DNA of 64,000 nt from Eubacteriales bacterium (GTDB lineage Bacteria > Bacillota > Clostridia > Oscillospirales > CAG-272): the NCBI GenBank assembly GCA_045535815.1, contig JAZSMJ010000014.1, positions 1,696-65,695 of the forward strand. Direction: 5' to 3'. Shown one piece after another: positions 61,491 to 61,624 of the stretch. A program made the position numbers and the translations under genes. The notes beneath the pieces were generated by a model, which did no database searches, had not been told where the DNA came from, and worked only from the letters and a program-made list of their open reading frames with translations. Position 1 is the first letter of the stretch. Each line of letters begins with the position of its first letter.

Positions 61491-61624
61491 GTACACCTTT
61501 GTTTCCAATGCAACATTGACAAGTACAGCCAAATATAATATAATATATTATGTATATTTATGTGCGATTTTGTCTGTTATGGTAGTTAAGGTTTCTTTGT
61601 AATACTATGTCAACAAAGGTGTAC
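61491..61624. repeat. 13-bp perfect inverted repeats GTACACCTTTGTT / AACAAAGGTGTAC flanking a 108-bp spacer
   Basis: The left arm is at 61491-61503 and the right arm at 61612-61624, exact reverse complements. A weaker third copy, TTTCTCCTTTGTG, lies at 62017-62029. Confidence 0.85.
61516..61544 (+). promoter_or_regulatory. Perfect consensus sigma-70 promoter (TTGACA-17-TATAAT) inside the IR-flanked spacer, pointing toward the PP2C/kinase genes
   Basis: TTGACA at 61516-61521, a 17-nt spacer, then TATAAT at 61539-61544. Confidence 0.6.

Follow-up and report, generated by a model that had tools for sequence, protein, structure and literature searches.

A degenerate, probably locked invertible promoter of the small serine-recombinase type upstream of a PP2C phosphatase/kinase operon in an Eubacteriales genome

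Introduction

The locus described here raises the question of whether a consensus promoter enclosed by short inverted repeats, which lies beside the remains of a recombinase gene and upstream of genes for a PP2C phosphatase and a Ser/Thr kinase, is a phase switch for these genes. It is found in a stretch of 64,000 nt from an Eubacteriales bacterium (assembly GCA_045535815.1, contig JAZSMJ010000014.1, positions 1,696 to 65,695), referred to here as the window. The original prediction, made from the letters of the window, proposed that the element may be, or may have been, an ON/OFF switch for the phosphatase/kinase genes. The type of system is already known, namely an invertible promoter operated by a small serine recombinase, and the copy in the window is degenerate. 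In the explanation that we favour, at a probability of about three in four, the element is the relic of such a promoter, which has been broken by an inversion, by decay of the recombinase gene and by loss of cargo, and which is probably locked.

Repeats, promoter and crossover sites of the element

The features on which the argument draws are given below from left to right.

61183-61490, + strand: 5' region and N-terminal half (codons 1-84) of a recombinase gene; Pfam Resolvase positions 2-85, E=9e-20
61484-61503, no strand: left hybrid site, GAGTAAGGT.AC.ACCTTTGTT, whose inner arm fits the family consensus
61487-61490, no strand: TAAG at the left inversion junction, with its partner CTTA at 62032-62035
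61504-61611, + strand: inner (invertible) segment of 108 bp, 87% identical (94/108) to the ON-state inner segment of locus L129
61516-61544, + strand: sigma-70-type promoter TTGACA-17-TATAAT, 12/12 consensus match, predicted start ~61551, pointing to PP2C
61612-61631, no strand: right site, AACAAAGGT.GT.ACTTTTGTT (reverse complement AACAAAAGTACACCTTTGTT), the intact ancestral proximal site
61647-62031, - strand: C-terminal part of the recombinase gene (codons 85-214), inverted; Resolvase positions 87-144, then the C-terminal tail
62032-62139, + strand: remnant of the distal-site outer arm (CTTAGTT), cargo leader and degenerate 5' end of cargo gene 1
62140-62151, no strand: junction of a ~7.3 kb deletion, with seven cargo genes and the 5' arm of a hairpin lost (L125 ~1399-8700)
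62152-62287, + strand: native upstream region of the PP2C operon, 136 nt, 98% identical to sister strains
62288-63088, + strand: PP2C phosphatase gene, 266 aa, Pfam PP2C/PP2C_2, 98% identical to P0121 of sister strains
63075-64000, + strand: Hanks-type Ser/Thr kinase gene, Pfam Pkinase E=2.6e-43, extending past the end of the window and of the contig

The element is bounded by perfect 13-nt inverted repeats, GTACACCTTTGTT at 61491-61503 and AACAAAGGTGTAC at 61612-61624, which can be extended to 16 nt with one mismatch and which together span 134 bp, with 108 bp between them. At the sequence level these 108 bp carry a promoter that matches the consensus at 12/12 positions and is conserved in 13/13 alleles of the family described below. 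In this respect the original prediction, which had described perfect repeats around 108 bp with a TTGACA-17-TATAAT promoter, is borne out. It had also aimed the promoter at the PP2C-kinase operon, antisense through the recombinase fragment and with no obvious terminator in between; the path indeed crosses the antisense C-terminal half, and no terminator-like site was predicted anywhere in 60500-62600. An Rfam search of 59500-64000 matched tRNA-Leu alone, with no match in the leader.

By itself a 13-nt repeat is not statistically remarkable, because 32% of Markov-simulated 64-kb windows contain a perfect 13-nt inverted repeat at a spacing of 30-300 nt, and the case for the identity of the element as a switch rests on homology, not on the repeat alone. 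The same 32% could be cited in favour of a chance repeat around a chance promoter, or of a MITE-like element, but homologous switches, in which the architecture of the sites, the inner length and the promoter are conserved, stand beside intact recombinases of many genomes, and the orthologous unit inverts. The element is flanked by TAAG and TTTT, without a target-site duplication, and it is single copy, with one occurrence each of GTACACCTTTGTT and AACAAAGGTGTAC in the window. The original prediction had proposed searching the genome for more such repeat pairs, and an exact-match search of the assembly returned no further copies of either. Chance or a MITE is thus hardly credible as an origin of the element, and this reading was rejected on the homology. 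The only other perfect 13-nt inverted repeat pair at a spacing of 30-300 nt in the window lies at 12995/13062.

The 13-nt repeats are portions of two ~20-bp dyad-symmetric sites, 61484-61503 and 61612-61631. While the right site is identical to the proximal site of loci L022, L065, L129-L131, L133 and L135, the left one is a composite, in which the inner arm stems from a former distal site, as its authentic inner half, and the outer arm consists of recombinase coding sequence plus TAAG. In L131-type loci the distal outer arm is ACCTTAGTT; its reverse complement is AACTAAGGT, with which the outer arm of the left site agrees at 7/9 bases. The left repeat is read not as an original site but as an inversion junction. 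Within the inner segment, beside the proximal site (61575-61611), a conserved motif, ACAAAGAAACC..AACTACCATAA on the recombinase-sense strand, has homologous positions in L022, L023, L025, L027 and L130 and varies less than the promoter spacer; its candidate roles are those of an accessory recombinase-binding site and of a leader element.

A family of compact invertible promoters

The recombinase fragments derive from a small serine recombinase (PF00239), with YIRVSTREQ present and with a C-terminal tail homologous to that of intact 214-aa relatives. There are 413 relatives in the genome collection, mostly from Oscillospiraceae MAGs of ruminant and other guts, and at least 8000 hits in the protein database. 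In intact relatives the stop codon of the recombinase gene is followed, within ~20-50 nt, by a proximal site, the inner segment and a distal site. The sites are 9+2+9 dyads with a non-palindromic GT/AC core (proximal AACAAAAGT.AC.ACCTTTGTT, distal AACAAAGGT.GT.ACCTT[GTA]GTT), and the two cores are mutually inverted. The inner segment measures 107-108 bp in 12/12 alleles having both sites, and the promoter takes the form TTGAC[AT]-17-TA[TCA]AAT with a TGn extension in 13/13 tabulated alleles, while its spacer sequence varies. In this arrangement the adjacent recombinase of ~210 aa would bind the two ~20-bp dyad sites (half-site AACAAAGGT, with the GT/AC core), and strand exchange at the core would flip the 108-bp segment, with the promoter facing either the recombinase gene or the downstream cargo. 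No description of the family site motif was found in the papers searched.

Sites of a paralogous subfamily are perfect palindromes with an AG core, GCATAAAGGT.AG.ACCTTTATGC. This subfamily includes an intact copy on contig C57 of this genome (G000, L020:2976-3739), where a site of this sequence, a perfect palindrome of 22 bp, comes after the gene for a 215-aa paralogous recombinase; the contig ends 64 nt past the site, inside the presumed switch, whose distal site and cargo are not in the assembly.

Evidence of flipping comes from comparison of assemblies. The L129 and L130 contigs have an identical 214-aa recombinase, left flank and cargo, with the right flank 100% identical over 4857 nt, and differ in the inner segment alone, the 108 bp of L129 being the exact reverse complement of those of L130. 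L132, L134 and L136-L138 resemble L130, which leaves L129 opposite to six assemblies, and it follows that the orthologous switch does invert. In a further case the inner segment of L024 is flipped relative to L025, L026 and L028, and a polymorphic inner half-site (ACCTTCGTT / AACGAAGGT) has moved from proximal to distal, as core exchange predicts. Contigs also end within 200 nt of the recombinase five times as often downstream as upstream (10 vs 2, of 80; p=0.04). The promoter points toward the recombinase in most assemblies (10/13 alleles); a single orientation was seen at the P0061 locus in 3/3 full-length assemblies and at the C57-type P0101 locus in 10/10, in the latter with the promoter toward the recombinase. 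At the level of assembled sequence, the normal mode of flipping is thereby shown for the orthologous locus of sister strains. No second assembly of the rearranged locus of the window was found, and a metagenome scan with a 22-mer from the cargo flank gave one chance match on an unrelated contig.

The first downstream genes (n=50) include many with defence-like or surface/secretion functions, among them Eco57I-type methylases, ResIII/helicase/HA proteins, HerA-like DUF87 proteins, TIR plus STING, SLH, Wzz and NRPS modules. Behind the cassette stand kinase genes in L060 and L094 and a PP2C gene in L038, so phase-variable control of Ser/Thr signalling modules occurs in the family. No description of an inverton-controlled Hanks kinase or PP2C module was found in the papers searched; signal transduction is among the enriched inverton functions in the DeepInverton survey (PMC11602134). 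At L028, L023 and other family loci, TIR plus prokaryotic-STING, Eco57I-type methylase, ResIII/helicase and HerA-like DUF87 genes lie behind intact switches and are candidate phase-variable anti-phage systems.

The ancestral locus and its native cargo

In sister strains the locus reads, in order, an HTH gene on the - strand, an intact recombinase gene, the switch, seven co-oriented genes, a hairpin, and genes for the PP2C, the kinase and an FHA protein. The seven genes encode a 183-aa zinc-ribbon protein, a 1024-aa VWA protein, a 165-aa protein, two more zinc-ribbon proteins and proteins of 264 aa and 363 aa. The hairpin between this cargo and the PP2C gene has a 14-bp stem (-19 kcal/mol, z=-4.4), and the sister-strain kinase, of 905-1051 aa and with a faint NPCBM match, is followed by the FHA protein. 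The gene order indicates that the native cargo is the seven-gene VWA/zinc-ribbon operon and that PP2C-kinase-FHA is the next unit, behind the hairpin.

Across L129-L138 an identical 214-aa recombinase and the same left flank (HTH, WYL, S24 and M78 peptidases, sigma factor) are accompanied by four different sets of inner segment plus cargo: the VWA/zinc-ribbon operon, a 1071-aa Sel1-like protein, a pair of 237-aa and 482-aa proteins, and an FHA-FtsK/EssC-like protein of 1495 aa with WXG100. Divergence among these sets begins right after the proximal site.

The idea that the PP2C/kinase genes are what the switch was there to control does not survive this comparison, since the native cargo was the VWA/zinc-ribbon operon and the PP2C gene keeps its own upstream region; the adjacency of switch and PP2C in the window is secondary. 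The broader idea of an invertible promoter fares better, as the element descends from a real recombinase-operated switch that sister strains carry in both orientations.

A 541-bp inversion through the recombinase gene

In the window the recombinase is one gene in two facing halves, with Pfam Resolvase positions 2-85 on the + strand and 87-144 on the - strand. Positions 61183-61486 are 90.6% identical to L125:429-733 on the + strand (61183-61490 being matched to the same L125 interval), and 61488-62031 are 86% identical to L125:1289-738 on the - strand. The relative G026 has the counterpart of ~61488-62031 the other way round, immediately behind the N-terminal half, and the two form an intact 212-aa gene. 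When 61491-62031 was reversed in a script, the window became collinear through the whole gene and promoter cassette with G026 and with L022, the closest intact relative, and collinear with L125 through gene and switch. When the inversion is undone, a distal site also emerges whose sequence, AACAAAGGTGTACCTTAGTT, is that of the actual L131 distal site, and for this reason a model of a single inversion is strongly supported. An inversion of 541 bp (61491-62031) thus appears to have split the recombinase and turned the promoter toward the cargo side.

In this model the outer arm of the distal site would have been joined to codon 84/85 of the recombinase, and the C-terminal half, the proximal site and the inner segment would have been carried into the opposite orientation, leaving the promoter facing the cargo side. 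The inner segment keeps the common orientation relative to its C-terminal half, with the promoter toward the recombinase, and the promoter faces right because the whole 541-bp block is inverted, not because the 108-bp unit has flipped.

The junctions lie 3-7 nt outside the GT core, with a 4-bp duplication and a 4-bp loss. At the junction position in the gene, 67/67 scored family members have W-R-x-x-TKEK and 0/67 have S-K; the distal site is therefore the probable source of the TAAG, and the gene lacks 4 nt. Such an outcome does not look like the conservative 2-bp exchange expected of a serine recombinase. The enzyme may have acted out of register, with repair afterwards, or the inversion may be a product of illegitimate recombination. 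Two more specific routes, a conservative exchange at the GT core and an exchange via the half-site-like CACAAAGGA within the recombinase gene, were tried and rejected, as the junction sequences do not fit either.

In a metagenome-derived genome in 87 contigs, such a rearrangement could in principle be an assembly artefact, the mis-assembled part being the inversion or else the connection to the PP2C region at 62152. Contig C22 ends 2 kb after the 62152 junction, and identity to sister strains jumps to 98.3% exactly at this position, while the left flank of the sister strains matches C47 at only 70-83%. Against this, both reciprocal inversion junctions are present and the breakpoints do not lie at a long repeat. 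The inverted part bears lesions of its own (two stops, two deletions), which an assembler would not make and which argue that the inversion itself is real. Left of 62152 there is no similarity to the sister sequence, and an assembler join would need a real shared k-mer in the genome. A mis-assembly is therefore regarded as very improbable, and the inversion is taken as a genuine part of the history of the relic.

Decay of the recombinase and possible service in trans

The gene is split at codon 84/85 and carries five further lesions, which would have gathered after the inversion: the start codon is lost (ATG to AAG at 61239-61241), Q127 and S186 have become TAG stops (61905-61903 and 61736-61734), 6 nt are deleted near 61882, and a 2-nt deletion near 61814 shifts the frame. 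The left flank is altered as well, the HTH gene of the sister locus being replaced in the window, with a breakpoint at ~61183. There is no functional recombinase in cis, and neither an intact GT-core-type recombinase nor another GT-core site is present elsewhere in the assembly. The original prediction was right to call the adjacent recombinase a pseudogene, and its suggestion that the switch may be locked or served in trans was the right frame.

Flipping in trans would require another enzyme, and the paralog on C57 is the candidate: the 108-bp unit might still be active, be flipped by this paralog and toggle additional transcription of PP2C/kinase. The C57 recombinase is intact and 78% identical, its own site has the same AAAGGT..ACCTTT arms, and on this identity and the similar arms flipping in trans would be possible. 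The two sites in the window share the GT/AC core in inverted orientation, with perfect inner arms and with 7/9 outer-arm bases kept in the left one, and the end of the C57 contig falls within its own switch, which an active recombinase would lead one to expect. The left outer arm, however, derives from coding sequence and is without the AAC that almost every GT-core site retains; sites of the C57 type deviate in the core and at outer positions, and a C57-type locus shows a single orientation across 10/10 assemblies. We consider an element that is still flipped in trans unlikely, and the locked relic remains the preferred reading.

Loss of cargo and the PP2C-kinase operon

To the right of the inversion, positions 62026-62139 align on the + strand at ~70%, with indels, to L125:1282-1398, which holds the distal-site outer arm, the leader and the first ~75 nt of cargo gene 1; in the window this native cargo gene is reduced to MKVNQRG followed by a stop. 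From there ~7.3 kb of cargo and the 5' arm of the following hairpin are missing, and 62152-64000 correspond to L125 8701-10549 (+ strand, 98.3% identity). No VWA or FHA gene is present in this assembly. Identity to sister strains steps from 70-90% to 98.3% at 62152, 2 kb before the end of C22, and the left flank of the sister strains finds its match in this genome on contig C47, at only 70-83%. The step and the C47 match suggest divergence at the species level and, in addition, a recent exchange of the PP2C module; a chimeric contig end would be a less likely explanation. Exact-protein look-ups for the PP2C and for the left-flank glycosyltransferase of the window gave no matches. In PADLOC the kinase matched the mad6 (2.8e-56) and PD-T4-6 models, and these matches were not taken as evidence of defence because they are limited to the kinase domain.

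From the predicted start at ~61551 to the PP2C ATG at 62288 the distance is about 737 nt, a path made up of the antisense recombinase C-terminal half and the cargo remnant, with one half of the ancestral hairpin deleted. Within the native upstream region of the PP2C gene there is an isolated TATAAT, at 62253-62258, with no -35 that can be recognised. We infer that the promoter is frozen and reads through into PP2C-kinase; it would transcribe ~0.74 kb of debris into PP2C-kinase(-FHA) and add to the output of the native 136-nt upstream region. The promoter here is best regarded as a relic that is probably constitutive, rather than as a phase switch in working order, and PP2C-kinase was not the original target of the switch.

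Comparison with known systems

Like Hin/hix and Gin/Cin/Pin, the family to which the element belongs has a small serine recombinase (Resolvase domain plus C-terminal HTH) encoded beside the switch and short dyad-symmetric sites with a non-palindromic 2-bp core in inverted orientation, and, as in Hin, a promoter lies on the invertible segment. Unlike in the Hin/Gin type, the recombinase gene lies outside an invertible segment of only 108 bp and the site sequence differs, and in the window the enzyme is dead. Invertases of the Hin/Gin type depend on a recombinational enhancer in cis to which Fis binds.

In Bacteroides fragilis, Mpi is a serine invertase that can serve sites in trans. The Oscillospiraceae family keeps one recombinase per switch in a compact cassette, and its cargo consists mostly of defence-like, secretion and signalling genes. 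It resembles Mpi switches and other gut promoter invertons in its short invertible promoter segments bounded by inverted repeats (PMC11602134), and gut promoter invertons also in its position upstream of surface or other accessory operons.

The element can also be set beside switches of signalling modules and beside switches that have become fixed. The cmrRST switch of Clostridioides difficile is a Firmicute inverton that controls a signal-transduction module. There the tyrosine recombinase RecV acts in trans on several switches, whereas the recombinase here is of the serine type and encoded in cis, and the kinase/phosphatase module adjoins the promoter only secondarily. In locked fim variants (ON or OFF) and in Cin quasi-site inversions, loss of the recombinase or recombination at secondary sites freezes or rearranges a switch. 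The element differs from these cases in that the secondary breakpoint lies inside the recombinase's own gene and in that the junction is off the core with a 4-bp duplication, so that the recombinase is only one possible agent of the event.

Exchange of cargo and wider meaning

At least four modules, each with its own inner segment, distal site and cargo, occur behind one and the same recombinase and left flank, the join lying at the proximal site or just past it; they include a VWA operon, a Sel1-like giant protein and a type VII-like FHA-FtsK/WXG100 set. The cargo of the family is enriched in defence-type genes. One tentative reading, which we hold to be possible though not probable, is that the cassette is a modular device for exchanging cargo, that the enzyme also exchanges between switches at different loci, and that the inversion in the window would be an off-target product of the same activity.

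Whatever the origin of the inversion, self-inflicted or illegitimate, its killing of the recombinase would be an example of how switches become fixed. Beyond the window, there is a family of compact serine-recombinase switches in rumen and gut Oscillospiraceae, with ~20-bp sites, a GT or AG core and evidence of natural flipping, and its definition of sites could improve the read-free prediction of invertons. Its cargo (restriction/helicase, TIR-STING, type VII-like, VWA, kinase) would be an entry point to phase-variable defence and signalling in largely uncultured Firmicutes.

Other features near the element

Two features to the left of the element may be recorded here. A small gene of the DUF6061 family (60116-60382, E=4.9e-42) lies just after tRNA-Leu (59880-59966), at the start of a strain-specific segment. 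At 61081-61109, on the - strand, there is a second perfect TTGACA-17-TATAAT with a TG extension, which points at a 64-aa gene (60718-60912) and sits amid AGGTGTCTT-like direct repeats at 60950-61071.
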